A stretch of DNA of 64,000 nt from Candidatus Bathyarchaeota archaeon (GCA_963827165.1 CAWGZR010000012.1:32001-96000), one strand, 5' to 3'. Shown: positions 16,922 through 48,498, counted from the first letter of the stretch. Made by a program: numbers and translations. Notes: generated by a model from the sequence alone, not told the origin.

Positions 16922-16965
16922 CGCAAGCCCCCCATTTTGCCTGTTTCGTTTCTTGGGTATTCTCG

Positions 16966-21527: not shown

Positions 21528-22600
21528 TGGCGAAACTTTTTTTTCTCCTTTCAGGGGAAAGCGAAACTCTGCCTGCTGCTGAGGTTAAAGCGATACTCGA
21601 AGCGGAAGGTTACGGCTACTCGAGTCCTCAGGTTTTGGATCAGACACTGCGTTTAGAAGCAGAGATTAGTTGTGTCAAAGCGGTGCAAGTGCGGGCTGCT
21701 TTCACGAGACTTTGTGCTCTGGAAGTTTTCATCTCAGCTGCCACAGAAACCACCGCATGCGAAGCTGCATGCAATGCCGATTTTGAAGCCATCCTTAAAC
21801 CTGGCGAAAGTTTCTCGGTACGGATTAACCGAATAAAAAACTACGCGGACCAAGACATCAACACGATGCGTCTGGAGGGAAAGCTTGGCAAAGTAATTCT
21901 TCAACGTGCTCCACAAGCCAAGGTCAATTTGAAGTGCCCGGACAAAACGTTCATCGGCATAGTAACCAACGAAAAAATTGTTTTTGGCTTAAAACTTACT
22001 GAAATCCAAAGCAGGACCTTCTCCGAACGCAGACCACGCAGAAAACCCTTCTTTCACCCATCCGCCATGCCGTCTAAACTCGCCCGCTGCATGGTAAATT
22101 TGGCGCACGGGAAAACGGACTCGCTCCTGCTCGACCCGTTTTGCGGTACAGGAACCTCCCTTATCGAAGCAACCTACATCGGCTGCAAAGCCGTCGGCGT
22201 AGATGCTCAGCGACGCATGATTCTTGGATGCAGAAAAAACCTACGCCACTTCAATATTTCCCCTGATGGCTTAATCTGGGCTGACGCACGCCATTTGCCT
22301 CTTTTCAAGGTTGATTGCGCGGTCACCGACCCGCCATATGGCCGCTCATCAAGCACTTTGAAATCAACGACCAAACAACTGGTTGAGGAGGTTTTAGCTG
22401 CTTCACACGACCTGCTTGGAGCAGGGCAACGGATTTGTATAGCCCTTCCCATAAGGATGAACGAACAAGGAAAAGTAAACCGTATGGCTGAAGATTTAGC
22501 CGACTACATCAACGGTCTTGGATACAAAACGATTGAGTCACATTTGGTCTTCATTCACAGATCACTGACACGAGAAATAATGGTTTATGAAAAAACATAA
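21527..22600 (+). CDS. trm11: tRNA m2G10 methyltransferase (Trm11/TrmG10), chimeric: last 51 aa supplied by the integrated element
   Basis: THUMP region, RRKPFFHP, LDPFCGTG, TDPPYG; att core is residues ICIA (303-306). Confidence 0.9.
   Translation: MAKLFFLLSGESETLPAAEVKAILEAEGYGYSSPQVLDQTLRLEAEISCVKAVQVRAAFTRLCALEVFISAATETTACEAACNADFEAILKPGESFSVRINRIKNYADQDINTMRLEGKLGKVILQRAPQAKVNLKCPDKTFIGIVTNEKIVFGLKLTEIQSRTFSERRPRRKPFFHPSAMPSKLARCMVNLAHGKTDSLLLDPFCGTGTSLIEATYIGCKAVGVDAQRRMILGCRKNLRHFNISPDGLIWADARHLPLFKVDCAVTDPPYGRSSSTLKSTTKQLVEEVLAASHDLLGAGQRICIALPIRMNEQGKVNRMAEDLADYINGLGYKTIESHLVFIHRSLTREIMVYEKT
22433..22443 (+). repeat. attL core ATTTGTATAGC
   Basis: Identical to 48355-48365 in the same codon phase (I-C-I-A); 16 of 19 bases match when extended. 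Confidence 0.85.
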
Positions 22601-22713
22601 ATCATAAGTTAAAACCGACGGTCTTTTCAGGCAGTCGAGAAAATGTTAAATTTTAAATTTTCAGATTTCAAGCAGTTAAGAAACTATCTTTTGAATCTCG
22701 CACGCGCCCTTTG

Positions 22714-22774
22714 AAGGGAACTATACCCGGCTAGGGCAATCCCGCAAGGGTGTCCCTATCTACTTTTTTCCCTT
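22714..22774 (+). other. Nested stem-loop with GCAA tetraloop (possible ncRNA or terminator)
   Basis: AAGGGAA/TTCCCTT outer stem, TAGGG/CCCTA middle stem, CCC-GCAA-GGG inner hairpin, T-tract. Confidence 0.35.
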
Positions 22775-22994
22775 GACAAGCAGCATTTTTATTTTCGCTA
22801 GTGGTCAACTTATGCTGCGGTCAGTAGAAGAGTTATGACTGGCTATTTTCGTCTTTTGTTATGCTTTTTAGATGTGCCCATAGTGACCAATTTTCTCGAT
22901 TTAGGTAAATTCGTCGCCAGCTTTTTTCAAATGGTTAGTGAGGCGCAACATACATAACCAAAACCAACAATTGGGTTTTTGTGTACTGCAATCA

Positions 22995-23026
22995 AGGGGC
23001 CATAGGATTTGAACCTAGACCTCGGG
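22995..23026 (-). pseudogene. tRNA 3'-half-like fragment
   Basis: Minus strand CCCGAGGTC-TAGG-TTCAAAT-CCTA-TGGCCCCT reads as variable loop, T-arm and acceptor 3' strand; no 5' half adjacent. Confidence 0.55.
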
Positions 23027-23255
23027 GCATTATCGCCAGTTCTAACTTATTTCTATTCAGCCACTTTCCCTTTTTTGACTCAAAAAACAACAGGGCGTGT
23101 TTACTAGATAATAGTCATAAAATTTGGGGTTGTAACGCTATGTGGGTTGCTCTACATAGTCACAAGTAAACGCTTGGTTGTAGTTGCGCTTGTACAGTCA
23201 CACACATAGATTAAGGGCTTGTTTTCTTTTTTTCAGTGGAGAAAAACTCGTGAGT

Positions 23256-23689
23256 ATGAATATGGGCGGGGGCACAACGAGCTTAGTTGTTCCTCCCTTT
23301 CTTAAACAAGAATCTTTAATTATGATATTTGTCGCTCTCGGATTAGGAATTGTCGGAATGGCATTTGCAAGAATCCAGAATAAAGGTTCTTTTCAAATGC
23401 ACCAATCGATTATTACGGGAGCAGTTGCATTAAACTTGATTGCGATTTTTGTGGTAATGATTCCTTCGCTTATCTTTTTTTACCTTAGCTCAAGTTTAAC
23501 CGACATTTCATTTTTCTCAACATTACAGCTGATTCACGGCTTAATTGGGCTTCCAACAGTCATTTTTTCGTTAATGTTTGCATTCAATTTCTTACCTATT
23601 CGTACTAAAAATGGATGATAATAACTGCCATTTTATGGTTAACAAGCCTATATTTAGGTGCAGTGGTGTACGCTACCATGCCAAACTAA
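23256..23689 (+). CDS. DUF420/cytochrome-b-like 4-TM protein (frameshift in A-run ~23610)
   Basis: His in TM segments (MHQSII, IHGLIG); adding one A gives ...RTKKWMIITAILWLTSLYLGAVVYATMPN*. Confidence 0.55.
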
Positions 23690-23791
23690 ACCTCCACAAC
23701 AACATTGACTATCAACCGAAATCTCACGTGAACCCCGGTTAAGCGCAGACTTCACAGGACCATAAGCCACAATAAATAAAAAATTAGAAAA

Positions 23792-26700
23792 TTGGTGAAA
23801 GACTTGAGTTTTGCTGCTCTAATTCCCATCTTGATAATGGAAGGATTGATGGCTCTCTTCGCCGCATGGGCTGTCAAGAAGGGCTCGAAAATCAAGGCTC
23901 CAAGGGAAGCTTGGATGCTGCTCTTCCTCCTTTCAATGATGGCTGAGATGGCTATTAGTATCGTAATTTACCTCTACTTTCCCGGAGCACTCTCCGAAAA
24001 TCTATTGTTAAACATGTTTGTGATGATGGTCACAGTCTTCGCTTTTGCTATCTTGTATGTATTTGATGAACCCAAGACCATGGATGAAACTATATCCGGC
24101 ATTGTGCAGGTAAGATCCGTAATAATCGCGTTGATCGTCGCCTTGGTCCTCTTGTCTGAGGTATTCATGGCCTGGACCCTTGCACTCCTCGGGGGAACTG
24201 CAGCCACGGCTGGAAGCCTCCAAGAAATTTTCATTACAATAACTAACTCTTCAAGTTCTTACTTGTTCATCTTCATGAACTCGGCCGAAATGGCAATAAC
24301 ACTTTTTTTCATCAGAAAAAGACTGCCGAAGGAACTTAGCTGGCTCATTGCGTCTCAAGTTATCATAATGATCCTTTCTCCGACCGCGATTATCAACTCC
24401 GCTTGGGCGAGCCTCTCCCTGGCTGCCGGCAGCGCCATCATGACTTTTCTATTCATATACATCTTCAAGTTCCTGTATGGTAGCAAGACCTTGAGCAAAG
24501 GTATCCTGAACTATCTGCTCTTTCTTATGTTGGCCTATGCCATGATGATGGCAGGTCAGTTTATCTGGCTTCTTAACGGCGATGCCGCAGTTTTTGTGTT
24601 ATCCATAATAGTTGAGATGGTTGTGTACTTCGGAATAGTATTAGACGAGAAGAAGCTTATTTCTTCGAAGTTGGTAAACTGGCAAGCGATGCCGTATTGG
24701 GTCTTTGGCTTCCTCTTGCTTGTATTTGTGGTTGAGTTCTTTATGAGTGGGGTCATGGCCATCGAGGTGTACGGCCAGGGCTTTTTCAATGGAATAATAT
24801 CTGCTTCAACGACGTGGCCCCTTACACGAATATTGAGCGCGGGCTTTTACGTAGGAACGATGACTGTCTTCACGGCTTGGCTCATCAAAAAAGGCTCTGA
24901 GATCAAGACCTTAATTGACGCTGGCATTGTGCTCTTCCTCCTCTCGATGATTGCTACGACATTCATCAGTACAGTCGTCTACCTCTACGTTCAAGCGTCA
25001 TTTACACTCCTTGATCTGGTGGCCATTAACCTGGCGGTAGCAGGCATCACAACAGCTGCCATTCTTTTTGCAATACGCAAGGGAAACGATAGTCTCCTAC
25101 AGCTTAAGGTGAGCAACATCAGGCTCATTTTGTTTGTGTCAATCGTTGCCTTGGTTATCATTTCTGAGGTGTTTATGGGCTGGACCTTTGCGCTGCTTGG
25201 CGGTACAGTATCGATTTCTAGCGGTCTCCAATGGGTCTATTCAGCTCTTATACACGCTACGAGCTCTTTTTGGTTCATCTTCATGATGTCCGCCGAAATG
25301 GGAATAACACTTTTCCTAATAAGAGGCAGGCTGCCAAAGCCAGCCGTCTTGATTATGGCATCTCAAACCATAATAATGATTCTATCTCCCACAGCGATTG
25401 GCAACTCTCTTTGGACCAGCATCTCCCTGATTGCGGGCAGCTCCGTCATGATTTTTCTTTTCATTTACGTCTTTGAATTCCTTTATAAGAATCGGACCAT
25501 CAGCTCAGGCATACTGAACTATCTTCTCTTTCTCATGCTGGCCTACGCGTTGATGATGGCGGGCCAGTTCATCTGGCTTCTCACGGGAGACGCCACAGTC
25601 TTCGTACTCTCTATAATAGCTGAAATGATAGTGTACTTCGGAATCGTATTGGACGAAAGAAGACTTGTTTCATCCAAACCCGCAAGTTGGCAAGCAAAAC
25701 CGTATTGGATCTTCGGTTTCCTGGGGCTCCTTTTCGTGGCGGAGTTCTTCATGGGCGGAGTCTTGGACATCCAAGTGTATGGCACAGGCTTTTTCAATAT
25801 GATGATGTTTGCCCCCACTGCAGGGTCATTCATGAATGTTATAAGTGCGGGCTTTTTCAATTTCATAATGTTCTTCACCAGAATCACCATGTCTCCGTGG
25901 TACCTGATAATGATGGGCATAGAGATGGGCGCGCTTGTAGCCTTTAGAATCAAGTATGTACGGGAGATTGAAACTAAGGTAAGGCTCATGCTTTTGATTC
26001 TCGCTTACGCCGTATACAGTATACTCCTGCCCGTCTTCCTAATTCCCGCCCAACTTCTCGGCAAAATCCCCTGGCTAGGCTGGAGTATGGGCATAGGAAG
26101 CTCAGGCGCTATAGCTCCCGCAGTTTTAATTGCGTTGCTCGGCGCATTTCTGATCAGTGGCATTCTTTCCTTTCTTTTCGGTAGCAGGCAACTATGCTCT
26201 GTAACGTGCATGGCTCCCCTCATGTACCAAGGGACAACTATAGATGCCATGAACTCATGCAGTGGAACTTCCAAGCTTGCATGCAAGCTGCACACAAACA
26301 AAATATCATCCGCCTATAAGGTCGTCGTATCGGCGGTGTGGATCTCGCTTCTGGCTGCAGCTTTACTATCCTACTTGGCGTCTGTAGGAATTTCAGGAAT
26401 CTCTGTCTTCGGCATGGATCCAGCCTTCTTCCTGTTCATGTTTTACTTCGGCTTTCTCTGGTACGTTATTTGGATGATGATCCCCTTTGTCGGCACGTAC
26501 GGCTGCGTCTCAACTGGCATGTGTGGCTGGGGAGCTTTCAACCAGCTCATCTCCCGAGCTGGGTTGTTTAGGCTAAAGGTGAAGGACAAGGCGCTTTGCC
26601 GCAGCTGTACGACAAAGGACTGCTCGAAGGGCTGTCCCCTAGGTCTCACAGGTCAGCCGGCGGCGTTCGCTGCGAAGGGCGAGTTCAGAAACTACAAATG

Positions 26701-28003
26701 CATCGGCGACGGGAACTGCGTTTCGGCCTGCCCACACAGAAATATATCCTTCTACGATGTAAGACATTGGTTAAGGGAGCACGCACGTAAACCCATGACC
26801 ACAGGCTCAATCAGCTTTTTGAAGCTCTTATCAAGGAACATTAGAAGACGACCCTTCAGGAACATGGCAACAATACTATGTTTTGCCTTCATTGCAGCCA
26901 GCATACTATCCGCGGGATACCTAATCAGCGGAACCACCAACAGCCTTAACGTTGGAATATCACGAATGGGTGCTGACATAATGGTAGTTCCAGCAAATTC
27001 TTCCGCTGCAGGAGAATCTTTGCTCCTAAATGGACAGCCAACAACATTCTTCTTTAACAACAACCCAGTCCCAGAAATAATGAGAGACCCTGGAGTGGCC
27101 GCCGTCTCCCCCCAATTATACATTGCAACCCTCGGAGCCTCCTGCTGCTCTTACCCCATTCAATTAATAGGATTCAATTCCAGTCAAGACTTCACTATTA
27201 CGCCTTGGTTACAAACAAAACTTGTCGGAACCTTGAAGCAAAATGAAATCATTGTTGGAAGCGCCATTATAGGGAATGTAGGTTCCCAACTCGAATTTTA
27301 TGGCCAAAATTTCACCATTGCAGGAAAGCTGTCGCCCACAGGAATGGGGTTAGACGAGACGGTCTTCATGCGTATGCAAGATGCCTACGCTATGGCCGCT
27401 GAATCAAACACAACAGCGGTAGAACCTCTCAATATTCAATCTGGGCAGATCTCGGCAGTTTTAGTACGTGTGGCACCCGGTAACAGTATAGCAGGAGTGG
27501 CAGCTGTTCTCGGATCTACTATTTCAGGAGTTCAAGTTATTCAGTCGAGCGGGCTGGTAAACACCGTGGCGAACCAAATATCCGCCACTACCCAACTTCT
27601 GTATTTTGCTGCGGCTTCGGTCACTTTGGTTTCTCTTCCGCTGATTGCTCTTGTTTCTTCAATGGTGATTAACGAGCGAAAGAGAGAGATAGGTATTCTC
27701 AGGGCAACGGGTGCCACCAAACGATTCATTCTTAAACTTTTCTTCTCGGAAGCGATTGCTCTCGCCCTAATCGGCGGAATACTGGGTGTTTTTTCCTCTT
27801 TCATCATGATTTACAGCTTTCAGCATTTTATAGCACTTCAACTTCAAATACCCTTTCTCTGGCCGTCTATTGGTCAAACTCTTGCCGAAGCCGGATTGGT
27901 CCTGGTTCTTGTAGTCGGTGCCGGAGCCGCTGCATCTCTATATCCAGCGATAAAAAACAGTCGGTTAGAACCGTACAACGCGATAAGGAGCGGAGAATCT
28001 TGA
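23792..28003 (+). CDS. Multi-TM polyferredoxin (NapH/FoxG/FtrD-like) with tandem-duplicated membrane domain, fused to a MacB/FtsX ABC permease
   Basis: Repeat offset 336 aa; CSVTC, CRSCTTKDCSKGCP, CIGDGNCVSACP; MGADIMVVP, GASCC, ERKREIGILRATGA, YPAIKNSRLEP. Confidence 0.75.
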   Translation: MVKDLSFAALIPILIMEGLMALFAAWAVKKGSKIKAPREAWMLLFLLSMMAEMAISIVIYLYFPGALSENLLLNMFVMMVTVFAFAILYVFDEPKTMDETISGIVQVRSVIIALIVALVLLSEVFMAWTLALLGGTAATAGSLQEIFITITNSSSSYLFIFMNSAEMAITLFFIRKRLPKELSWLIASQVIIMILSPTAIINSAWASLSLAAGSAIMTFLFIYIFKFLYGSKTLSKGILNYLLFLMLAYAMMMAGQFIWLLNGDAAVFVLSIIVEMVVYFGIVLDEKKLISSKLVNWQAMPYWVFGFLLLVFVVEFFMSGVMAIEVYGQGFFNGIISASTTWPLTRILSAGFYVGTMTVFTAWLIKKGSEIKTLIDAGIVLFLLSMIATTFISTVVYLYVQASFTLLDLVAINLAVAGITTAAILFAIRKGNDSLLQLKVSNIRLILFVSIVALVIISEVFMGWTFALLGGTVSISSGLQWVYSALIHATSSFWFIFMMSAEMGITLFLIRGRLPKPAVLIMASQTIIMILSPTAIGNSLWTSISLIAGSSVMIFLFIYVFEFLYKNRTISSGILNYLLFLMLAYALMMAGQFIWLLTGDATVFVLSIIAEMIVYFGIVLDERRLVSSKPASWQAKPYWIFGFLGLLFVAEFFMGGVLDIQVYGTGFFNMMMFAPTAGSFMNVISAGFFNFIMFFTRITMSPWYLIMMGIEMGALVAFRIKYVREIETKVRLMLLILAYAVYSILLPVFLIPAQLLGKIPWLGWSMGIGSSGAIAPAVLIALLGAFLISGILSFLFGSRQLCSVTCMAPLMYQGTTIDAMNSCSGTSKLACKLHTNKISSAYKVVVSAVWISLLAAALLSYLASVGISGISVFGMDPAFFLFMFYFGFLWYVIWMMIPFVGTYGCVSTGMCGWGAFNQLISRAGLFRLKVKDKALCRSCTTKDCSKGCPLGLTGQPAAFAAKGEFRNYKCIGDGNCVSACPHRNISFYDVRHWLREHARKPMTTGSISFLKLLSRNIRRRPFRNMATILCFAFIAASILSAGYLISGTTNSLNVGISRMGADIMVVPANSSAAGESLLLNGQPTTFFFNNNPVPEIMRDPGVAAVSPQLYIATLGASCCSYPIQLIGFNSSQDFTITPWLQTKLVGTLKQNEIIVGSAIIGNVGSQLEFYGQNFTIAGKLSPTGMGLDETVFMRMQDAYAMAAESNTTAVEPLNIQSGQISAVLVRVAPGNSIAGVAAVLGSTISGVQVIQSSGLVNTVANQISATTQLLYFAAASVTLVSLPLIALVSSMVINERKREIGILRATGATKRFILKLFFSEAIALALIGGILGVFSSFIMIYSFQHFIALQLQIPFLWPSIGQTLAEAGLVLVLVVGAGAAASLYPAIKNSRLEPYNAIRSGES

Positions 28004-28743
28004 TTGTCGTCTCTGAACTTTCAAAAGCTTACAGGAAAGATATTGAGCCAGTTGAAACCAAAAGCTCTGACGGCAGCTCTTACATGCGCACCGTCGACTA
28101 TTTTAGAGCGGTTCAGAATGCCACTTTTTCTGTTTCAAAAGGAGAGTTTGTATTAATTTTAGGCCGCTCTGGAAGCGGAAAAAGTACATTGCTCAGCATG
28201 TTGGGAGGCCTCACCGCTCCCACCGAGGGTGTCGTCAGGTTGAATGACAAAAATCTATGGTCTATGTCTGATGAAGCTTTGTCTCATCTTCGAGCAGAAT
28301 ACATAGGTTTTGTTTTTCAGTTCTCAGGCTTGTTACCGACATTAAATGTTTTGGAAAACGTGATGTTGCCTTCCCTATTCGTTAAAGCGAAAGAAGACCC
28401 AATAAAGCGCGCTCGTAAACTCCTTTTAGATGTTGGACTTGATTCGAAGATCCAGTCGTTTCCTTCTGAGCTTTCTGGGGGCGAGCTCAAAAGGGCTGCA
28501 ATAGCTAGAGCTTTGATCAATGATCCTTTGCTCATCTTGGCGGATGAGCCGACGGGGGATTTGGACGTGGACACTGAAAGGGAAATTATGGAGCTTTTCA
28601 AAGAGATTAATCGGCAGGGAAAAACTATTCTTATGGTTACTCACAACCCGGAACTTTCAAGTTACAGCAGCAGAGTTATTAGAATGGAAAAGGGAAAAAT
28701 AAGTGAGCCACTATTCCATCTGTCCTCAGAAGAAACTGTGTGA
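28000..28743 (+). CDS. LolD/MacB-type ABC ATPase
   Basis: GRSGSGKS, GFVFQF, LSGGE, ADEPTGDLD, VTH. Confidence 0.92.
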   Translation: MIVVSELSKAYRKDIEPVETKSSDGSSYMRTVDYFRAVQNATFSVSKGEFVLILGRSGSGKSTLLSMLGGLTAPTEGVVRLNDKNLWSMSDEALSHLRAEYIGFVFQFSGLLPTLNVLENVMLPSLFVKAKEDPIKRARKLLLDVGLDSKIQSFPSELSGGELKRAAIARALINDPLLILADEPTGDLDVDTEREIMELFKEINRQGKTILMVTHNPELSSYSSRVIRMEKGKISEPLFHLSSEETV

Positions 28744-29037
28744 TATTCGGCCCTTGATGACTTAACATGTTGGTTTATCCCTAAATTGTTTGTTGAAGTA
28801 TGTTTGGGAACGTGCTAGCTCGAAAAGAGTTACGATCGCCTTATTCAGCTTGAATTTTTTTGAGCCTTTTTATTTGCGTGCAACACTGAAAAATGCGGTA
28901 AATATGCAAAGGAAACTTTTGGATATTGTAAATGAAAAACAAATATCGCTGTTGTGAAGACTGGGAACTGAAAACAGTATCTACAGTTACGTGTGCGTAT
29001 TTCTTGGTGCGTTAAAGGTATGTTTAGTTCATCCTTT

Positions 29038-29247
29038 TTATCGCGGGGTCTTTGACGGCTTAGCAAAGTAAACAGCAATTATGCCCAAAATGAATGCGAC
29101 CGCGCCGAGAACTATTAACCCCGATTCGTTAGGCTTATACATCATCAACCAACTCATTAGGGTTTGGGCGCCTAGCCCAATGCCAATGATGATTCCACCT
29201 GCCAACGAAAGGATGCATCCAACATATATTAACCATAATTTTGTCAT
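29038..29247 (-). CDS. Small 2-TM membrane protein
   Basis: 69 aa, ATG start, two hydrophobic helices, basic tail. Confidence 0.55.
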   Translation of the reverse strand: MTKLWLIYVGCILSLAGGIIIGIGLGAQTLMSWLMMYKPNESGLIVLGAVAFILGIIAVYFAKPSKTPR

Positions 29248-29419
29248 AATTAGCTCACAAAATTATCTTTTGGGGCTGTCTAGTACATAAGGTTTGCCAA
29301 ATCCGCGTGCAGGCTTGTCCCGAAATTACTAATGTTTGTTTTGAGAAGAGGGTCTCACAAGCTTCACAAGAAGCCTTGCACGTTGTAAATGTAACATCAC
29401 TTTTATAAATTCTAAGTGT

Positions 29420-29932
29420 CTATCCTGGCAAAACGGTTACGAATCCGCCCATATATCCAATCTGACCAGGTTGACCATCGCTGCCAGTCATCATCGCCCA
29501 ACCACCCGCATCCGTGTCGCATGGAAAAGTGCACCACCAACGGTAAACACCTGCCGTTGCCTCGTTAAACTGGAAATTAGACACCGTCGGAACCCCAGTT
29601 TCGTTGCTTGGCAGAACCACAAAGTTCACCCCCAAGGTTGGGCTAGTAAAGCTATGCTCTCCGTCGTCATAGTTTATAACCGTTAAATTGACTTCTTGAT
29701 CTGTATAAACGGTGAAGTTGCATGGAGTAAAAGCGTCGTGCATTAAGCCGTCGGGACCGAGTTTCACGTCACCTTGAACTACCAACGTTATATCTGCTGT
29801 TTTTGGTGTACTGGAAGCTGTGGCTGTTGCAGGTTTTATATCGTAGCCAATTATCAACCCGAGCACAACGGCAGCCATGACTACGACAACGAAAGCAAGC
29901 CAAACTATTTTCGACAAATCACCATTGCTCAA
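29420..29932 (-). CDS. Membrane-anchored cupredoxin-domain protein
   Basis: N-terminal TM, VNLTVINYDDGEHSF, GVYRWWCTFPC...WAM, MGGFVTV. Confidence 0.75.
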   Translation of the reverse strand: MSNGDLSKIVWLAFVVVVMAAVVLGLIIGYDIKPATATASSTPKTADITLVVQGDVKLGPDGLMHDAFTPCNFTVYTDQEVNLTVINYDDGEHSFTSPTLGVNFVVLPSNETGVPTVSNFQFNEATAGVYRWWCTFPCDTDAGGWAMMTGSDGQPGQIGYMGGFVTVLPG

Positions 29933-30450
29933 GGGTAATCATCATAAAAGTTGTTTAGCGTTTATCTAAAAAGATTGTGGTTTTTACCATCTTTATTCTT
30001 CTTTTTAGCGTACTGCATTGTCCAAATATTACGTGTTAATGACGTTAGCTATGATGAAAAAGGACGTTGATTTCGACAAAGAATTCAGAAAGGATCTCAT
30101 TGATAAAATCAATTCTTCTCTTATTAAACTAACAGCTTTTATAGGGTGAAGTATCAACCAGCAACCAGGTAACAGTGATTTCTGAGGACGGATAGCTCGA
30201 TGGGGACAATCCAGAATGTCTATTTATCGATACAGACTCTTGGGTTCCGAAACGGTTTCTTGAATCTCTTTATCGATCTCTTCCAAAATATTTATCAGCT
30301 TATTAGTTAAGTCGTTGCATCTTTGAGGTTTCCTTTTCTGAAACTGGGCAAACATTACCTTAAGCGCATAAATTTGTTGTAATTAGCTTTTTGGCTGCTA
30401 TCGCCATCAATCAGCAAGAGCAGGGATTTTTTTCTTAACTCTATTTGCAT

Positions 30451-34347: not shown

Positions 34348-34410
34348 ATCGAGGTAACACTCCTATCTGACCAGTCCTTAGTAAACCTGTTGTGAAGGAG
34401 CAAAATCTTC

Positions 34411-39332: not shown

Positions 39333-42300
39333 TGTCTTCGGTTATTACTGAGTCGCAAGTTGAAGAATCCTGTCTTGACTTATTTAGAAATCTTGGGTAC
39401 AGCGTGATTTCTGGTCCTGATATTTCTGAGGGCGGAATAGCTGAAGAACGTAAGTACTGCGAGGTTGTGCTTGTTGGCAAGGTTAAGGATGCTTTGAGGC
39501 GAATTAACAAATCCATTCCTGAAACCGCTATCGATGAGGCTGTTAAGAAGGTTTTAAGAACTGAGAGTCAGGAACCGGTGGCTAACAATCAGCTTTTCCA
39601 TAAGTTAGTAACCGATGGAGTTGATGTTCAGTACAAGCGAGAAGACGGCAGTATCAAAGATTCCAAAGTTTGGCTTTTTGACTTTAAAGACTTAAGTAAT
39701 AATGAGTTTTTGGCTGTTAACCAGTTTACGATTATCGAGGAGCGCAATAACCGGCGACCTGACATTATCTTATTCGTTAATGGGTTGCCGCTGGTTTTGA
39801 TTGAATTGAAGAATCCGGCAGACGAGGAAGCTACTATTTCTTCTGCCTTTAAGCAGTTTGGAACTTACCAGAAAGAGATTCCGTCAATTTTCCGCTACAA
39901 CGAAGTCTTAGTCATCAGCGATGGAACCTATGCGAAAGCTGGAACCATGACTGCAAAAGAAGAACGCTTTTCACCCTGGAAAACAATCAATGCCCAAAAA
40001 ACACCAAAAACCCAGCCACAAATCGAAGTCCTAACAAAGGGAATGCTTAACAAATCAACGCTCATGGATTTAATCGCGCACTTTGTTGTTTATGAAGCTG
40101 AAAAAGACAAGAAAGAAGGCACCGTCAAACTTTCTAAGAAAATCGCTCAGTACCAACAATACAACGCAGTCCAAAAAGCCCTAACATCAACGGTGAATGC
40201 TACAAAAAAAGATCGAAAAGCTGGCATTGTTTGGCATACGCAGGGTTCAGGAAAAAGCTTAACGATGGTTTTCTATACTGGGAAATTGGTTTTGAACCCT
40301 GCCCTTGAAAACCCAACGGTAATTGTGTTAAATGATAGAAATGACTTAGACGACCAGCTTTATGGAACTTTTAGTAGATGTCATGCTCTTTTGAGGCAGG
40401 AGCCACGGCAGGCAACAAGCAGGGAAGAGCTAAAAGAGCTTTTGCAAGTCTCATCAGGCGGCATAATTTTCACAACTATCCAAAAGTTTTTCCCAGAAGA
40501 CCAAGAAACAAAATATCCCCTACTATCCGAAAGGAAAAACATAATAATTATAGCCGATGAGGCGCACCGAAGCCAATACGGTTTTGGACTTAAGGTGCCA
40601 AAGAACGTTGATTCTGAAGCTCTAAAGTATGGTTATGCTAAATATCTTCGGGATGCTTTGCCCAATGCAACTTTTATTGCTTTTACGGGAACTCCGATTG
40701 AAAAGGCAGATAGAAGCACACCTGCAGTTTTTGGAAAAATAATAGATACTTACGACATTAACCAGGCTGTTGAAGATGGCTCCACGGTTAGAATCTATTA
40801 TGAGAGCCGACTTGCCAAAATCGAGCTTAAACCAGAAGAAAGACCATACATTGACCAGGAGTTTGAGGAAGTTACCGAGGGCGAAGAGTCAGCGGGCAAA
40901 GAATACCTCAAGAGCAAATGGAGCCGACTTGAAAGGCTCGTTGGCAGCCAGGAACGCATCAAACGGGTAGCCAAAGACATTGTGGATCACTGGGAGAAAC
41001 GTGTTAGCGTTCTTGATGGCAAAGGCATGATTGTTTGCATGAGCCGTCGCATCTGCGTGGACCTGCATAATGAAATAATTAAGCTCAAACCTGAATGGTA
41101 TAATCCAGATGATGACAAAGGGTACCTCAAGGTTGTGATGACTGGGTCAGCTGCGGATGGACCAGATTGGCAAGAACACATTCGCAATAAGCAGCGCAGG
41201 CATGACCTTGGGGAACGCATGAAAGACCCCTCCGATCCCTTCAAAATAGCCATAGTCCGTGACATGTGGCTAACCGGCTTTGATGCGCCAAGCCTCCACA
41301 CAATGTATCTTGACAAGCCTATGAAAGAAGCCAACTTAATGCAGGCCATCGCACGGGTTAACCGAGTCTTCAAGGACAAAAAAGGTGGTTTAATCGTTGA
41401 CTACATCGGATTAGCAAACGACCTAAGAAAAGCCCTTGCAGAATACACAGAGGACGACAGAAGACTAACCGGCATTCCGCAAGAAATGGCAATAGCCAAA
41501 ATGCAAGAAAAATACGAAGTTGTAAAGGCACTTCTTCACGGCTTTAACTTTCAAAAATTCTTCGCAGCCCCAGCAAACGAAAGAATGACCATCATGCTAG
41601 AAGCAATGGATCACATATTAAAACAGGAAAACGGCAAAGAACGCTACCTCAAAGAAGTCAACGCCTTGCTCTGGGCTTTCGCTCTCTCGGTTCCAGATGA
41701 TCAGGCTTTGAAAATTAGAGATGATGTGGGCTTTTTCCAAGCTGTGAAAGCAGCCATAATCAAGAACACTGAGACTAAATCAAGCCAAGAGCAAGACGTA
41801 GATACAGCAATAAAGCAGATCATTTCAAAAGCCATCATTAGCGACCGAGTAATCGATGTCTTCGCTGCCGCTGGACTCAAGAAACCAGATGTCTCCATCC
41901 TTTCAGAGGAGTTCTTGGAAAAAGTTAAGGAAATGCCGCAAAAGAATCTCGCCTTTGAAACCCTAAAACGTCTCCTAAATGATGAGATTAGGTTTAGGCA
42001 GAAGAAGAATCTGATTCAGGCCCGCTCGTTTGAGGCGCTGTTGGATAAGGCGATTAAGGCTTATACTAACAAAAGTGTTGAGACAGCTCAGGTTATAGAG
42101 GAGCTAATTGAGCTTGCAAGGAAAATGCGGGAAGAACAAAAAAGAAACACCGAGCTAAATTTGAGCGAAGAAGAAATCGCTTTTTACGATGCTTTAGCCG
42201 ACAACGAAAGTGCAAAACAGGTTCTTGGCGATAAAACGCTGCAGGTTATGGCACGAGAGCTTGTGGATATGGTTAGAAAGAACGTTACGATCGATTGGAC

Positions 42301-42454
42301 GCTGCGAGACAACGTTCAAGCAAAACTGCGAATCATGGTTAAACATATACTCAAAAAATACGGTTACCCACCAGATAAGCAGGAAAAAGCAACCATAACA
42401 GTTCTCGACCAAGCAAAGCTGTTATGCAAAGATTGGGCGGAACCACAAAACTAA
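39332..42454 (+). CDS. hsdR: Type I R-M restriction subunit
   Basis: [44 protein letters not shown]. Confidence 0.96.
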
Positions 42455-42546
42455 ACAAGTTATAATGGGGATGCAATAAGAATTGAAAGCCTCTAAAACA
42501 ATTGAGACAGCCGACTTTTGACTTGCTGCTTCAAGTGTGAAAAACC

Positions 42547-43221
42547 TTACTTGTCTACCCTGTTTAGAAAATAAATTTCTTTTATTTCTGTCCTATAGAG
42601 TTCTTCTTTATATCCTGTAATTTTTCGCATAACATTATCTTTTACTTGTCTGCATTTTACCGTAGCTGACTTGCTACCACTTATTATGTAGGTACTGGGA
42701 TTATGACTTTGAATTCTTGTAACAATTTTTGCCGCTTCCTTTGCTACATTACTATAGTTTTGTATGTAACTATTTGTTACTTCAATATTTTCAAAGAGAT
42801 GTTTAATCTCTAACGTTATCTGATCAATTGTTAAGCCCTTATCAAGAATGTTTGCAATGTATTTGCCAAAAAGCCCATTCTGAACAAATTGGGCAATATG
42901 CAAACCTTCAGCAGCATATTTTTTGACTATCCTATCTCTTAAGTGGTCACATTGGGGCTTATTTTTTTCAACTCTTCTTAGTGTTAAGCCCATTTGGAAA
43001 AGGATGTGAAGTCTTTCGTCATCAACATAATTTCGAAAAAGACCCCATTCTGATGAATTTCTTTGCTCCTTTGCAACCTCAATTGTTTCAGGATTTTGAA
43101 CAAAAGCAATTTTTCTATCTTTGAACTTGCGAGCTAGTAACTTGACTTTCTCTTCAGTCCACCCAAGTGCTCCCTCGGTTGCTCCTTTGGCAGCGCTTTC
43201 AAGAGGATCTTTAGACGCCAT
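42547..43221 (-). CDS. Hypothetical protein
   Basis: 224-aa AT-rich ORF, start overlaps upstream 81-aa ORF. Confidence 0.65.
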   Translation of the reverse strand: MASKDPLESAAKGATEGALGWTEEKVKLLARKFKDRKIAFVQNPETIEVAKEQRNSSEWGLFRNYVDDERLHILFQMGLTLRRVEKNKPQCDHLRDRIVKKYAAEGLHIAQFVQNGLFGKYIANILDKGLTIDQITLEIKHLFENIEVTNSYIQNYSNVAKEAAKIVTRIQSHNPSTYIISGSKSATVKCRQVKDNVMRKITGYKEELYRTEIKEIYFLNRVDK

Positions 43222-43456
43222 CTCCGTACTCTTCCAAGTATGAGGAGATGCTCAGGGGATTATCATCTAATATTAGCGTACTTCCCGGCAGTATTGCCAT
43301 ACTCTCTATTTTTATCGGTTCACCTATGTACTTGTCGAGAACTTGTTCACCATTCTTATTCAGAACATATGTTCCATCTGAACCAAAACCAAGTTCTTCC
43401 AGTAACAAAATTTTGCAATTTACCGGCATGTCTTTCAGAGACATTATTTCAGTCAA
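43211..43456 (-). CDS. Small acidic hypothetical protein
   Basis: 81 aa, coupled to 42547-43221. Confidence 0.6.
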   Translation of the reverse strand: MTEIMSLKDMPVNCKILLLEELGFGSDGTYVLNKNGEQVLDKYIGEPIKIESMAILPGSTLILDDNPLSISSYLEEYGDGV

Positions 43457-43833
43457 TTTTTATCACTCTCTAGTAATGTATTAATTAATTCTTTTTTAAA
43501 TTATCCTATTATGACTATATAGGTTATGAATTCTGTCTCCAGTATAACCCATTTTAGTATTTGTCGTTATCGCTTTATTAGTATTTAACCGTAGTGGCTT
43601 TTTTTGACATATGGTTTCATAAAAAGTCACAGAGTGTCCCTACCTAACATAACGTTAAGGATTGTATAACCATTAAATCTATCGGAACAATGAGTTTCTG
43701 GGTAATTGCTCGACATGAATACAAATCGGCTTTGTATCTCTTATCTACTCCTGTGAATTTATCTTTGTGTGATTGTCAGAATACTATCACAGTGAATATA
43801 AAATAGTCTAACATCATTGACTATATCTTTATG

Positions 43834-44334
43834 TTATAAGGAAATGATTTGCGTTTTGTGCGGATACTTAGAATCGGCTGTTAAGTATTGCATGGAAACC
43901 GTTAATCGACTCCTGCTTAGGCTGCTTCTTATTCCATTGTTAATTTTAGTATCGCCCTTTCCCTTGCTTGCGTGTCCAAACCTAGTCACCTTCCATGATG
44001 GGGTTATCCCCTGGGTAATCCCCCGGATAATCTGGGGGTTACTGGTCAGAATATAGAAGGGCATCTTCGTCTGTGAAGTGTAGAGTTCAGCTATGAAGTT
44101 CAGTAGCCGTTTGCCTATCCCTATGCCCTGATAATCTGGTAAGACTACTAATCGACTAACCCTATAGTATCTTGATTTCATGCGGATATGTGCTACAGCG
44201 ATGAATGCAATGGGCTTATTTTGATATACTGCGGTATAACATCGGATACCTGCTCCGAGCTTGCCGTTTAGATAATGATATTGCCGAAATATCTTCCAAA
44301 GCTGAGCGCCGCACCGATGGATTTGGAGTTCCAC
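43834..44334 (-). CDS. GNAT acetyltransferase, -1-frame continuation of the upstream ABC ATPase
   Basis: FRQYHYL, SRLVVLPDYQGIGIG. Confidence 0.8.
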   Translation of the reverse strand: MELQIHRCGAQLWKIFRQYHYLNGKLGAGIRCYTAVYQNKPIAFIAVAHIRMKSRYYRVSRLVVLPDYQGIGIGKRLLNFIAELYTSQTKMPFYILTSNPQIIRGITQGITPSWKVTRFGHASKGKGDTKINNGIRSSLSRSRLTVSMQYLTADSKYPHKTQIISL

Positions 44335-44948
44335 GGGCGGCCTAACCCTTTTTTTCGATCAAACTCCATCGTGTCAGTGCAAAAGACCCAATCGGGATCT
44401 AGCCAATCTACGACATCATAATGGCACGTAACGGCTATGAACCTCTTTTTAGAGCGTCGAACAGCCTTGCTGATTGCAAAGGCGCTAACTTTAGCAATTT
44501 CCCGATCGACAACGCTTGTGAACTCATCAAAAACAATCAACGGCTTATCCAAGCAAAGGGCGCGGGCTATATCAACCCGCATCTTTTCGCCTTGACTCAA
44601 GCAATCATAGCTTTTTAGCCAATCAGGCGGGGAAGCAAAGCCCACACTGCAAAGCATCCGGGTGATCTCTGACGTTTCCAGAGCTTCTGGGAAATCATCT
44701 AGAACACATTTGTTTTTGTAATCAAATTCCTTAACATAAGCGTCTGGGAAAAGCTGTTTTGCTATGCTTGTTTTGCCTGAGCCGCTTCGGCCAACGATAA
44801 CGCCGACCTGCCAATCATCCGCATCTATGGGTAATGAGCCTTTGAAATGCTTCTCTAACTTAACATCAGATAGCGTGTAGCTGCCAACCACACTTTGAGC
44901 ACGAAAGCTATCAGCTTGATCCCAACGCTTTACAATGTCAAAATCCGT
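44268..44948 (-). CDS. Soluble ABC-family ATPase; start uncertain
   Basis: GRSGSGKT, LSQGEKMR, FDEFTSVVDR, TCHYD; frame open upstream (TDFDIVKRW...FRAQSV). Confidence 0.82.
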   Translation of the reverse strand, partial: TDFDIVKRWDQADSFRAQSVVGSYTLSDVKLEKHFKGSLPIDADDWQVGVIVGRSGSGKTSIAKQLFPDAYVKEFDYKNKCVLDDFPEALETSEITRMLCSVGFASPPDWLKSYDCLSQGEKMRVDIARALCLDKPLIVFDEFTSVVDREIAKVSAFAISKAVRRSKKRFIAVTCHYDVVDWLDPDWVFCTDTMEFDRKKGLGRPWNSKSIGAALSFGRYFGNIII

Positions 44949-45499
44949 AGCTTATACCCCTCCAGCTTGAGCTTATCAAAGATGCTTTTCTGATCGGCTT
45001 CATCTTGGCATTCAACAATGATTTCGTAGGTTGAAGGAATAGTTGCTGAAAAGTTATCTTCATCCGACTCCTCGGGCAGTTTCTCGCCTAAAGACTCCAA
45101 TAGTGCTTTTAGATCGTCTTTTTCGCCCATCTGAAGCAACCGTACGTACTCAGCGGTGTCTAATTCTTTATTGTGTTTGCCTTTCAGCTTGTTGAGGATT
45201 TGGCGCAGCATTCGCCGGTCAACGTCAGTAACGGGCAGACGTAGAACGGGCGCAAAGAATTCTCCATGCTGCTTGCAAACTACAGCCCTTTGCTCCCCGT
45301 CGGCGTAGACGCCGTCTTTGTTAGCTATAATCGGATATGCCCATCCGTACTTCTGCAGGCTATGCCAGACCTGCTGTTGCTGCTTAAGTGTCATGCGATT
45401 TGGATTATCTTGGTCTGTTGTTAGAAGACGAATATCCTCTACCAGTTGAAGGTAGGCTTCCGGTACTTTGATCGTAGTTTTATTTTCCATAAACTCCAC
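44930..45499 (-). CDS. ParB/Srx-like N-terminal domain protein
   Basis: NPNRM, SLQKYGWAYPII, DGEQR; C-terminal YEIIVEC.DE.DQ domain. Confidence 0.75.
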   Translation of the reverse strand: MEFMENKTTIKVPEAYLQLVEDIRLLTTDQDNPNRMTLKQQQQVWHSLQKYGWAYPIIANKDGVYADGEQRAVVCKQHGEFFAPVLRLPVTDVDRRMLRQILNKLKGKHNKELDTAEYVRLLQMGEKDDLKALLESLGEKLPEESDEDNFSATIPSTYEIIVECQDEADQKSIFDKLKLEGYKLRILTL

Positions 45500-45935
45500 T
45501 TCCCGTTAAAACCTTGGCCAATTCTTCATTGAAAGGTTCATTCTTAGCAAGTTCGTTTTCAATTTCAGCTGCTCTTTTAGAGGCATCTTGCTTCTCCTTA
45601 ACTGTTTCAAGCCCTAGTAAAGTCACAAGCCGATCCGTTATGTCCACCATTCTTGAGAGGAAAATTGGCTTCTGGGCTTCGTTTGCTGTTTGAAAATGAA
45701 GGCTGGCGGTGCGATAGAGATAGTCATAACGGTTTACGAGTATAAGCCGAGCTTTATCCAGGTCAAAGAGCTGGGTTAAGACAGGTTGCCAAGTCTCGCG
45801 GGTTTCCGCGTCATAGTAGATATTTCTATCTGACGTTTGGAATTTTTCGCTCAGCAGCTTCACAATCTCACAGAGGGAGAAGCCTTTAGCTTCGAGCTTT
45901 AGAAATTCCAGGCGTCTTTCAACGACTTCACTCAA
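45480..45935 (-). CDS. HTH protein resembling a terminase small subunit
   Basis: RRLEFLKLEAKGFSLCEIV..TSDRNIYYD, helical body ending LLGL; directly upstream of the ParB-like gene. Confidence 0.45.
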   Translation of the reverse strand: MSEVVERRLEFLKLEAKGFSLCEIVKLLSEKFQTSDRNIYYDAETRETWQPVLTQLFDLDKARLILVNRYDYLYRTASLHFQTANEAQKPIFLSRMVDITDRLVTLLGLETVKEKQDASKRAAEIENELAKNEPFNEELAKVLTGSGVYGK

Positions 45936-46723
45936 GCAAAATCCTCCAAAATTGAAACCCGGATTTCAAAATCGCTATAGTTTGTGGTTCGCCTCAGCAT
46001 ATCGCCTTCCAGCTTTACTTCTCGGCGATGCTGCTCTGTTAGGAAGCAGTAGGGTTTCTCAAAGGTTGGAAGGTGGTATTTTCTGCAGATTTTGAAGTAG
46101 GCTTCCACTATCTCGAAAATGTCGCTGTCGGGGAAACACTCTTGAAAAGCTTTGATGTTTGGGGCACGGTTCCAGTTATAGGTTAAGTGCCAGTAGAGAC
46201 GCAGACAGATCTTCTCGTATTCGGTAGCTTGCTTTTGCAAGACATCCACTTTATCATAAATCACTTTCATTTGCAAAAGTGCCTGAACGAAGGTCCTTCT
46301 TTTAGGGTTTTCGCGTGCTTTAGCTATGTTAATTTGGTAAGGTTCTTCGGGTTCTTCGTCCCATTCCTGCCCAAGCATTTTTGCCTCTTCTTGTGACTGA
46401 GGGTACTTCTCAAGCAGGTATTTTCGGGTTTTAGCGTATGTTACCATGATTTCCCATTCGGCACCAGACATTAACGAAAGGTCGTTGCCATCTTCGTCTA
46501 AGACTTCAGGCCACAACTGCTTTAGAGTAAAATTGTTGGGATCTATGCCCTCTTTCTTAAGCTTCTCAAGGACCTCAGCTGATAATGAAGCACTTAATGG
46601 CTTCTGCTCATTTTGGGAATGTTCTCTTATCTTTTCCTTGAAATCTTCAAACATGTTTTCTCTCTTACTTTGGATTTTTCCTGTTGCCAGCATTCCTTTC
46701 CTTTTGCTTTGCTCTTTGCTCAC
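45932..46723 (-). CDS. Hypothetical protein
   Basis: 263-aa ORF with overlapping junction to downstream gene. Confidence 0.6.
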   Translation of the reverse strand: MSKEQSKRKGMLATGKIQSKRENMFEDFKEKIREHSQNEQKPLSASLSAEVLEKLKKEGIDPNNFTLKQLWPEVLDEDGNDLSLMSGAEWEIMVTYAKTRKYLLEKYPQSQEEAKMLGQEWDEEPEEPYQINIAKARENPKRRTFVQALLQMKVIYDKVDVLQKQATEYEKICLRLYWHLTYNWNRAPNIKAFQECFPDSDIFEIVEAYFKICRKYHLPTFEKPYCFLTEQHRREVKLEGDMLRRTTNYSDFEIRVSILEDFA

Positions 46724-46943
46724 GTTTTACAATTCGCCAATATTTGCGGATCTCAGGTGAATGCTTGAATGCTTTCACAGTGTCCATGACAGAGGATTTT
46801 GAGCTTGTAGCTTATGAATAGCATATAAAATTTTTTAAAATAATCTTCTTGACGAACTAAGTATTAATCAAAAAGTTAAATTCAGAATATTCCGTTTAAG
46901 CGCCATTACCTAAAAGAAAAAGAACTCTAAAAAATTTTAGGGT

Positions 46944-48323
46944 CTACAATCTAAGTAGATATTTGTCCTCGCTTAATGTTTGCAACAAGCTCCATCCATC
47001 ACCAAGCTTCTTCATTAGCTCGGTTTCTCCTTTTGCAACTGTGTACTTTTTCTGTTGAGGTATAGGCCTATTGTGTTCACTTGTTGGTTTAGATTGCGGT
47101 TTAACTTCTTCTCCCGACTCTTGTTCGTGTTGATCATTATCGTCTTTAAAGCGTCTGAACTCAGTGATTGCTTCCTCAGGGTCTTTTGATCGCTGTAAGG
47201 CATCTTCTAATTTCTTAAGTTGGTCTACTCCGTAACCGTTAAGTTTAGCAAAGTCCAGCAGCATTTGACTTCTAAGCTTCTTCTCATCCAATACTCGAGC
47301 ACCTTCATGCAAAAACTCAAGGTCAGGAAGAGCCTGTTTATACTTTGCACGAAGTTGTTCAATTAGTGGCTTCGAATAAGGTGCTTCTTCACCGCTAACT
47401 TTTCTGCCTTTAATTTTCTTAATCCAGTTGTTAGAACAGCCAGCGTTTTCTAAAGCAGTTTGAACAATCCTTCGCCCATCATGGAAAGTAAAATCAACAT
47501 TTGCTCTTTGCTCAAGCATTGTTGCTTTCTTGGCGATAATGCGGTAACTCAAAGGCTCTCCGATATTGCGTTTAACTGATAAGAATACGTAGTCGTCATT
47601 TGTCCACTTATGATTAAATGTGGTTTCCATCCATCGCCTGTATTCAATTAGTACTTTTTTTGCTTCAGGTGTTAGGAAGGTTTCTTGTTTTACTCCTCGA
47701 TACTTTCCTTTGCCATGACCTTTAATCATGTCAGAGGGCAAAGATATGTGGGGAATCTCTTGCGTTTGCCAATCCGCTTCAAAGTGTGAGAAACGAAGTT
47801 TTGAGATTGACTCTATCGCTATCGCCGAGGTTGTTCCTAACATAACTAATGCTTGGTCTCTGGGGTTTCGACATGCTTTGAACAGTGCTAAACGATTTTC
47901 TTTAGATGGCACAGTTTGGCTTTCATTTTGTATATAAGGCATTGACCGCCCAGCTTGAGCTTGTAGCTGCTTATAGTTAGTTCTGAAGAATCCTCTCACA
48001 CATTGAGCCACATGCCACTTGCGTCCTTCTGGAAAATTGACTTTTGCGTTAGATAGACTGTCGAGTAGCTTCTCTGCGTCTAAGCTGTTAGAATCCTTTT
48101 TCAAATCTAGGAGGCCATTAGGGTCTAAGTGTGACCACGTGCAGAAGTGATAGAGCGACATGGCTACATTGCCTTGTCTATTATTGAGTTTTCCGAGATA
48201 GTTCATCACGCATTCATAGTTTTTTGCCCAACCGTCGATGATCGTGTTTTCCGTGTAACCATACTTTAAATTCTTCTGCTTGTCTTTTATTATACTCATG
48301 ACCTCGCCACTCTCAAGCAACAC
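46944..48323 (-). CDS. Tyrosine recombinase/integrase with atypical catalytic boxes
   Basis: RDQALV, FHDGRR, EAPYSKP (Tyr); 5' end ~30 bp from attR. Confidence 0.85.
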   Translation of the reverse strand: MLLESGEVMSIIKDKQKNLKYGYTENTIIDGWAKNYECVMNYLGKLNNRQGNVAMSLYHFCTWSHLDPNGLLDLKKDSNSLDAEKLLDSLSNAKVNFPEGRKWHVAQCVRGFFRTNYKQLQAQAGRSMPYIQNESQTVPSKENRLALFKACRNPRDQALVMLGTTSAIAIESISKLRFSHFEADWQTQEIPHISLPSDMIKGHGKGKYRGVKQETFLTPEAKKVLIEYRRWMETTFNHKWTNDDYVFLSVKRNIGEPLSYRIIAKKATMLEQRANVDFTFHDGRRIVQTALENAGCSNNWIKKIKGRKVSGEEAPYSKPLIEQLRAKYKQALPDLEFLHEGARVLDEKKLRSQMLLDFAKLNGYGVDQLKKLEDALQRSKDPEEAITEFRRFKDDNDQHEQESGEEVKPQSKPTSEHNRPIPQQKKYTVAKGETELMKKLGDGWSLLQTLSEDKYLLRL

Positions 48324-48354
48324 CTTGTATAGCTTTACCTATATTAATGATACT

Positions 48355-48365
48355 ATTTGTATAGC
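48355..48365 (+). repeat. attR core ATTTGTATAGC
   Basis: Matches 22433-22443; a second TTGTATAGCTT lies at 48325-48335. Confidence 0.85.
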
Positions 48366-48498
48366 TTCTCCCAAAACATTAAACATCAAAGCGTTAGGCG
48401 CATCGTCTGGGTACAAGCACGTGGAATCTCACTTCGCCCACGTACATCGAACCCTAACGAGGGAAATTGCAGTGTTTGAAAAGGTGCAAAACAAATGA
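48355..48498 (+). pseudogene. trm11: Displaced native 3' end of trm11
   Basis: ICIASPKTLNIKALGASSGYKHVESHFAHVHRTLTREIAVFEKVQNK*; TGA overlaps rnz ATG. Confidence 0.85.

Follow-up and report, generated by a model that had tools for sequence, protein, structure and literature searches.

A mobile element integrated in trm11 of a Bathyarchaeia genome carries a longer in-frame substitute for the end of the tRNA methyltransferase

A stretch of 64,000 nucleotides from a Candidatus Bathyarchaeota genome (GCA_963827165.1, CAWGZR010000012.1:32001-96000), referred to here as the window, contains the tRNA methyltransferase gene trm11 with a 25.9-kb element lodged in its 3' part, the reading frame being completed by DNA of the element. 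This arrangement is very probably due to a plasmid-like element that was put into trm11 by its own tyrosine recombinase, that brought a surrogate gene end in frame, and whose decay leaves that end behind as the permanent C-terminus. Recombination would take place in a short core, ATTTGTAT, lying within the 11-mer ATTTGTATAGC, and the core would be kept conserved by the host, since it encodes the residues I-C-I-A of the methyltransferase strand β5. The attachment site on the element (attP) would be followed by a diverged in-frame copy of the gene remainder (αE-β6-β7 with an 11-residue insert), so that the integrated Trm11 is completed by element DNA and the native tail of 43 amino acids is stranded before rnz. 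The most likely role of the surrogate tail would be to keep the methyltransferase, which forms N2-methylguanosine at tRNA position 10 (m2G10), working, and not to act as a regulatory device; an insertion after which the enzyme works would cost the host little. Elements of this family would move between species, integrate repeatedly at the site, sometimes one atop another, and then decay, and the loss of both the integrase and the native tail would leave the element-derived tail in place for good.

Attachment cores, target gene and surrogate tail

The 11-mer ATTTGTATAGC is present in exactly two copies in the window, at 22433-22443 (left attachment site, attL) and 48355-48365 (right attachment site, attR), with 0.02 expected by chance and at least two matches in none of 100 shuffles. 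When one mismatch was allowed, a single site was added (55318, outside the element; 1.24 expected by chance). The spacing from core to core is 25,922 bp. In blastn comparisons with the loci of ten relatives, the DNA similarity of the relatives ends on the left at the stop codon of the tail and resumes on the right at 48354-48356, where the attR core begins, and the interior of the element has no match in any of the ten loci. The span 22129-22484 across attL is bridged with zero differences by a contig from a run of another study, so the junction is not a mis-assembly. A core of the form ATTTGTAT[A/T/C]GC was found in 21 of the 24 trm11 genes examined. In two genomes, G019 and G076, position 9 of the core is A in attL and T in attR, and their empty-site relatives G003, G004 and G016 have T at this position; the difference would place the exchange within ATTTGTAT, as is predicted for a cross between attP and the chromosomal site (attB). 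The position-9 pattern, as read from these alignments, appears to be that of recombination and is contrary to the expectation from a target-site duplication.

The open reading frame (ORF) of trm11, at 21527-22600, encodes 357 amino acids, passes through the attL core and ends in ...RICIA, followed by LPIRMNEQGKVNRMAEDLADYINGLGYKTIESHLVFIHRSLTREIMVYEKT and the stop codon. Its product matches the Pfam families PF02926 (THUMP) and then PF01170 (class I methyltransferase), and the D-P-P-Y motif is invariant in the Trm11 alignments. The sequence match to T. kodakarensis Trm11 (5E71) has an expectation value (E) of 4.8e-29, compared with 1e-10 for Trm14, and the best fold matches are the Trm11 proteins of A. 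fulgidus and T. kodakarensis (6ZXW and 5E71), with template modelling (TM) scores of 0.76-0.85, compared with 0.52 for Trm14. The host-encoded part is 64-83% identical to Trm11 of the same genus. By these matches the host gene is assigned to Trm11, the archaeal methyltransferase of m2G10 and of the dimethylated form m2,2G10. At the far end of the element, the frame through 48355-48498 reads ICIA followed by SPKTLNIKALGASSGYKHVESHFAHVHRTLTREIAVFEKVQNK and a stop codon, the TGA overlapping the ATG of rnz (ATGA at 48495-48498). Of 34 constrained columns this displaced tail deviates at two, with S in place of L/I and H in place of Y/F, and rnz, the native downstream neighbour of trm11, now lies 25.9 kb away from it.

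The element supplies its own, longer replacement for the last third of the Trm11 catalytic domain, with an insert of 11 residues, and in 12 of 12 aligned long-tail genes the long tail starts directly after R-I-C-I-A in strand β5. The AlphaFold model of the window Trm11 (mean predicted local distance difference test, pLDDT, 88.8) has β5 at residues 302-311, a helix of 12 residues at 320-331 and strands at 333-344 and 347-356, and the model of the short form of G003 (pLDDT 90.0) has a helix of seven residues and strands at 322-330 and 338-345. Both tail forms are thus predicted to complete the methyltransferase fold; in these models the exchanged region would comprise αE, β6, β7 and half of β5, the loop and helix being made longer by the insert. 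Among the long tails (66 pairs), the mean proportions of nonsynonymous (pN) and synonymous (pS) differences were 0.242 and 0.699, respectively, a ratio of 0.35 that indicates purifying selection. The two tails of the window, compared over their shared block of 25 codons, are 64% identical in protein and 59% in DNA, with saturated synonymous sites, and their divergence is therefore old. The tails closest to that of the window belong to the integrase-bearing relatives G093 (76%) and G128 (74%). A protein search with the tail only gave 100 matches at E <= 1e-3 among 120 candidates, nearly all of them, by the listed lengths, Trm11 proteins of about 357 amino acids from close relatives, and no donor lineage with a vertically inherited long tail was found in this search.

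The predicted integrase of the element, of 451 amino acids, starts 55 bp from attR. It matches the phrog_216 integrase family at 1.5e-11, and its best curated match is archaeal XerA, at an E of 2.4e-8 that lies far under the cut-off of that model. An alignment of 27 homologues has H281-x-x-R284 and Y316 without exception, W300 and R155 with at least 90% conservation, and a Lys-rich hairpin, which would be consistent with tyrosine recombinase activity.

Empty, occupied and decayed sites among relatives

Trm11 was found in all 41 related genomes first searched. In 12 of the 20 loci first examined, all 12 from the same genus, the site is empty, a Trm11 of 348-349 amino acids directly abutting or overlapping rnz, and the tails of these 12 relatives are 76-85% identical to window positions 48355-48498. 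Similarly, alignment length puts all 15 genomes that could be classified in other families of the order into the short class, and Trm11 of T. kodakarensis is likewise of the short type in the tail region. These empty-site comparisons identify 48366-48498 as the native gene end and trm11-rnz as the ancestral arrangement. The runs holding this stretch are metagenomes of soil, freshwater sediment and peat.

The window integrase has matches in 53 of 120 genomes of the genus (E <= 1e-5). In G093, G066, G128, G076, G107 and G046 the integrase is 68-80% identical and lies about 30-55 nt from the core, the native tail and rnz. The elements with both ends on a single contig measure about 9 kb (G107), 25 kb (G093), 30 kb (G076) and 31 kb (G128), and Trm11 is long in each. 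Five integrases of 35-57% identity (L037-L041) have neither a trm11 tail nor rnz within 1.5 kb and, on this evidence, are taken to have other targets. The same arrangement is found in six of six metagenome contigs that carry integrases 68-97% identical to that of the window. In two of these, the integrase is 95-97% identical and the adjacent rnz just 82-84%, which points to recent transfer between species.

The distribution of the long tail was compared with a host tree built from Prs, the N-terminal part of Trm11 and Rnz for 24 genomes, half of them long and half short, picked for the trait or the integrase and not a random sample. The tree requires eight changes between long and short, at least five of them forced by strongly supported branches, and as few changes suffice for shuffled labels in 284 of 500 trials; on the host tree the trait is therefore not clustered. 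The host sisters G019 and G076 have tails that are merely 54% identical, and between G000 and G128 the tail has a pS of 0.34, compared with 0.73 for the rest of the gene. Long tails are also carried by proteins just 59-62% identical overall to Trm11 of G003, and alignment lengths of the long type occur in two further genera of the family (G339, G417, G321 and G366). Judged from these sequence comparisons, the long tail tracks elements rather than hosts.

A census was made by hand count from alignment lengths: of 120 genus genomes searched, 113 had a match and 104 were classifiable, giving 35 long genomes, about a third of those classifiable, 69 short and nine unclassifiable ones. The long tail is uninterrupted in all 32 of the 35 long genomes that were inspected (G041, G053 and G081 fell outside the inspection). 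All 30 long-tail loci in which rnz was located, six with and 24 without an integrase, have 0.22-31 kb of foreign DNA separating rnz from the long tail. The inserts of the 24 loci without an integrase measure 0.22-12.8 kb, their cargo is unrelated to that of the window, and no integrase relative was found within them at E <= 1e-3. The native tail is open in all seven integrase-bearing loci, the window included, with none truncated, none bearing a stop codon or frameshift and none undetectable, and the open tails of these loci deviate at 0-2 of the 34 constrained columns. Among the 24 integrase-less loci it is open in seven, open but truncated at its 5' end in two, interrupted by a stop codon or frameshift in seven and undetectable in eight, so that it is broken or lost in 15. 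The loss of the integrase together with a broken or lost native tail indicates that the replacement is often one-way. Stacked long tails were found in six of the 32 inspected loci (G128, G046, G110, G124, G108 and G096, with three in G096), from which it follows that new elements integrate into the core kept in a resident long-tail gene.

These results bear on an earlier note on this DNA, made from the sequence alone. Its proposal of an integrative element in a protein gene agrees with the exact cores, the empty-site relatives and the integrase at the same site in six genomes, and its reading of 48355-48498 as the native Trm11 tail is confirmed by the identity of that segment to the 12 empty-site tails, with trm11 abutting rnz. 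The tail beginning LPI had been described as borne by the element, with an inserted segment, and as long selected; its pN/pS ratio, the 11-residue insert and the common starting residue in all 12 aligned genes uphold this, as the 25-codon comparison does the statement that the two tails are related in protein and heavily recoded in DNA. Relatives that have the LPI tail and lack the element would have spoken against the note, and none came to light, foreign DNA being present at each of the 30 long-tail loci in which rnz was located.

Some irregular loci were recorded in the same survey. In four occupied integrase-less loci, rnz is split into two or three pieces in different frames (L025 in G010, L073 in G112, L074 in G094 and L082 in G096), which is either an assembly indel error or decay after separation from trm11. 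G015 has two near-identical copies of prs-trm11(long)-insert-rnz (G015:C23:4171-5244 and G015:C21:248728-249801; L026 and L027), which may be a duplication or a redundancy of the bin. Decayed long-tail copies lie far from trm11 in L028 (9924-10154 and 13095-13174; G012:C13) and L029 (9934-10118; G002:C4); they are preceded by the core or a one-mismatch core, the trm11 of both genomes is itself short-tailed, and the copies may be remnants of elements inserted or rearranged elsewhere. The integrase-less insert of G011 (L024), of 12.6 kb, contains an ORF of 476 amino acids at 14720-16150 and small genes unrelated to the window element.

Contrary evidence, alternatives and known systems

Several findings weigh against the reading of an element that integrates by its own recombinase and leaves its tail behind. 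No attP circle or restored attB of the strain was seen in the assembled contigs of four public runs, which were compared over window positions 12000-31999, the attL half, and in which rare variants are dropped. In the contigs of the same four runs there was no joint or listed loose end at 22433-22443, a statement that leaves aside 22 unlisted loose ends and public collections, which were not searched for attP/attB junction strings. All close integrase homologues that were found are in the integrated state. The integrase scores 26.4 bits with PF00589, slightly below the cut-off of 27.1, and the first arginine of the usual catalytic set could not be located with confidence in the alignment of 27 homologues. 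The window Trm11 scores 247.8 bits with the Trm11 family model TIGR01177, under the cut-off of 316.55. The pN/pS of the long tails is twice that of native tails (0.18), some frameshifts in the displaced tails of relatives may be errors of metagenome assembly, and the element is a mosaic with few integrase-proximal genes in common with its relatives. Excision of the window element is possible. A contig break at 22425/22453 in a possible source run was considered as a trace of excision and rejected: a stretch of 29 bases there is shared with attL of related strains, and the break is read as a branching between strains.

Its mosaic content means that the element could be a composite of successive insertions, and one alternative takes the 25.9 kb as an island of several insertions, of which only the integrase-proximal part is now mobile, the long tail perhaps stemming from an older, decayed element. 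Accretion at the site is evident from the stacked tails of the six loci, and the G+C content varies from 0.36 to 0.51 across the element. Related elements share with it just the integrase and five or six neighbouring genes; a tblastn comparison of 23 element proteins with six remnant inserts and four related elements gave no shared genes other than the integrase-proximal ones and a single small ORF, and a common backbone was definable only as far as the integrase, attachment site and tail. The island is nevertheless unlikely: no internal copy of the core was found with up to one mismatch, the contig of the window has no tail-like sequence besides the two ends, and the tail of the window is nearest to those of integrase-bearing relatives.

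A further idea, quite doubtful, is that αE-β6-β7 exists as two anciently separated, interchangeable cassettes, one chromosomal and one borne by elements, which differ in function. If this were true, the cassette might alter the balance of mono- and dimethylation of G10, the range of tRNAs or the stability of the enzyme. Integration would then reprogram tRNA modification in the host and the element would draw a selectable benefit from its cassette, which would help to explain its retention as the sole tail after the element has decayed.

The earlier note had gone on to propose that integration and excision toggle between two Trm11 isoforms, and in its strongest form this would be a regulated switch, in which frequent excision and re-integration alternate short and long Trm11, the two differ in activity, substrate range or stability, and the switching itself is selected. 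Such a switch is highly improbable. The open displaced tail, with its few deviations, in the window and in six other integrase-bearing loci means that excision would restore a normal gene, but an intact displaced tail is equally expected after recent integration. The long tail has a conserved insert of 11 residues and a longer helix αE and is under purifying selection, as a switch would have it. Against this, no attB or attP form was detected in the assembled contigs or among the six close metagenome homologues, the integrase has gone from 24 loci, and switching is impossible in the 15 of them with a broken or lost native tail, where the long tail would work alone. The toggle is not needed to explain any of the observations, and this part of the note is not sustained.

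It is hardly conceivable that a transposon or casposon produced the 11-bp repeat by duplicating its target site and that the repeat is no attachment site of a tyrosine recombinase: the flanking direct repeat is indeed short, and thaumarchaeal casposons insert into the 3' ends of protein genes according to the relevant passages of PMC6563490, but a scan of 23 element ORFs gave no match to a Cas1 or transposase family, the putative recombinase gene adjoins attR and has orthologues in the same position in six other genomes, the insertion is at the identical residue in all aligned long-tail genes, attL and attR differ at position 9 in G019 and G076 as exchange between attP and attB would have it, and a duplication would not supply a diverged in-frame tail.

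Integration by the element's own recombinase, with a surrogate gene end, has parallels. Gene-invading elements with substitute ends are known, the substitute usually being a near copy. Archaeal integrase genes of the pNOB8 type stay intact and those of the SSV type are split on integration; the window integrase gene is whole and adjoins one attachment site, and is likened to the pNOB8 type by gene layout, not by sequence. In the comK prophage of Listeria (active lysogeny) the element sits inside a host gene and excision changes the product. Switches of that kind interrupt the gene and excise on a defined signal, whereas trm11 is open in both states.

The closest likeness is with the cryptic prophage e14 and with phage 21 at icd. 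In E. coli, as described in the passages of PMC13626634 on e14, icd extends into the prophage, an icdC fragment is stranded at the far end and excision rejoins the gene; the element-borne and native ends differ mainly by synonymous changes and by two conservative substitutions. An attachment site inside a housekeeping coding sequence, an in-frame replacement of the 3' end and a stranded native fragment are common to both systems, as far as those passages describe icd. In the present case the best 25 codons of the surrogate reach 64% identity, its synonymous sites are saturated and it contains 11 inserted residues; the host is archaeal, and many species have the surrogate as their only tail. 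Excision of e14 is documented in the same passages, whereas the trm11 element is known here in the integrated state alone. Among thaumarchaeal integrated elements, 14 of 68 lie in the 3'-distal parts of protein genes and the attachment sites have a median length of 17 bp, by the passages of PMC6563490 on integration sites; short attachment sites, protein-gene targets and ends defined by empty-site comparison are points of likeness with the element in trm11. In NitEve-E2, element-derived sequence restores the reading frame, eight nucleotides including the stop codon being replaced (PMC6563490, same passages), compared with 43 codons, or three secondary-structure elements, replaced by 51 in the present element, whose host belongs to the Bathyarchaeia. 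Among the thaumarchaeal targets named in the main text of PMC6563490, supplementary tables aside, trm11 is absent. A fusion of ParB with a Trm11-like protein is encoded by an Asgard mobile element, in the relevant passage of PMC11529989, and is not a target site. No report of trm11 as an integration target was found in full-text literature on Trm11 and integrases or on mobile elements of Bathyarchaeia.

Mechanistically, the case belongs to a familiar class, in which an element integrates site-specifically and restores its target with a surrogate 3' end. What is new is the target gene and the host lineage, the nature of the surrogate, which is a distinct structural variant and not a near copy, and the comparative evidence, drawn from related genomes, that in many species of one genus Trm11 now ends permanently in sequence derived from an element. 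It would be a clear example from nature of a housekeeping protein, here a conserved tRNA-modification enzyme, being permanently remodelled by mobile elements, with a tail that moves between species together with its element. To our knowledge, Bathyarchaeia are uncultured and almost no genetic tools exist for them, and a defined integrase, core site and target are now at hand for this lineage. The two natural variants of Trm11, each of which would be an active enzyme, also offer a means of probing the contribution of the αE-β6-β7 region.

Gene content and coordinates

Coordinates are collected in Table 1. Replication-type genes and the absence of virion genes, structural or packaging, among 18 element ORFs compared with PHROGs and in Pfam suggest a plasmid-like integrated element rather than a provirus; relatives of the integrase were likewise absent from a viral contig collection. 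Small winged-helix proteins are also encoded. The FtsX/ABC pair, at the attL end, has no counterpart in the four related elements compared, and the integrase-proximal genes have counterparts 51-85% identical beside the integrases of G076, G128 or G093.

Table 1. Features of the trm11-rnz region and of the integrated element (window positions)
Feature	Position	Strand	Remarks
Host-encoded part of trm11	21527..22443	+	THUMP and most of the methyltransferase domain, to R-I-C-I-A in strand β5
attL core ATTTGTATAGC	22433..22443	+	Codons I-C-I and first two bases of Ala
Element-borne surrogate Trm11 tail	22444..22600	+	51 amino acids and stop; rest of β5, loop, αE, β6, β7
Element body	22444..48354	.	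Bounded by the two cores
FtsX-type permease-like protein (1403 amino acids) and ABC ATPase	23792..28743	+	PF02687 1.3e-17; PF00005 6.8e-31
Replication module	31111..34347	-	MCM-like helicase, PriL-like, primase/polymerase-like; matches all under curated cut-offs
MCM-like helicase	31111-32397	-	PF00493 4.6e-5; phrog_18685 2.5e-18
PriL-like protein	32751-33530	-	NF002589 PriL 7.6e-10
Primase/polymerase-like protein	33700-34347	-	phrog_19930 1.1e-5
Type I restriction-modification hsdM, hsdS, hsdR (complete)	36469..42454	+	PF02384 3e-109; PF01420 1.6e-16; PF11867/PF18766/PF04313
Integrase-proximal genes: GNAT, ABC-like ATPase, ParB-like, two unknowns	43834..46723	-	phrog_620 4e-11 (ParB-like)
Putative tyrosine-recombinase integrase	46944..48299	-	Conserved ATG 48299; listed ORF extends to GTG 48323
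Integrase-attR spacer	48300..48354	.	Motif ACCTATATTAA about 10 nt before core; related upstream copy
attR core ATTTGTATAGC	48355..48365	+	Similarity of relatives to native tail and rnz begins here
Displaced native Trm11 tail	48366..48498	+	43 amino acids, frame still open
rnz (RNase Z)	48495..49418	+	TIGR02651 351.9 bits, above cut-off 292.95

In the spacer between the integrase and attR, the motif ACCTATATTAA is conserved across six integrase-bearing elements, in an alignment made by eye, and is in the same position in L031-L035. A related copy lies about 15-20 nt further upstream and in the window reads CCTTGTATAGC, which is core-like. G019 and G130 retain the spacer motif despite loss of the integrase. 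These motifs (ACCTATATT) may mark a recombinase-binding or promoter region. A second integrase-like stretch, degraded, is present in the same genome as the window element (G000:C10:210707-211360), with 27% identity and three stop codons.

The protein of 1403 amino acids contains a 4Fe-4S dicluster motif and, at its C-terminus, a permease domain of the FtsX type, and its gene is overlapped by that of the ABC ATPase. At 43834-44891, an ABC-like ATPase ORF (207 amino acids) and a GNAT ORF (166 amino acids) overlap and jointly match phrog_11143 end to end; they could represent a conserved pair or a single gene that a frameshift has divided, and counterparts 65-85% identical adjoin the integrases of G076 and G128.

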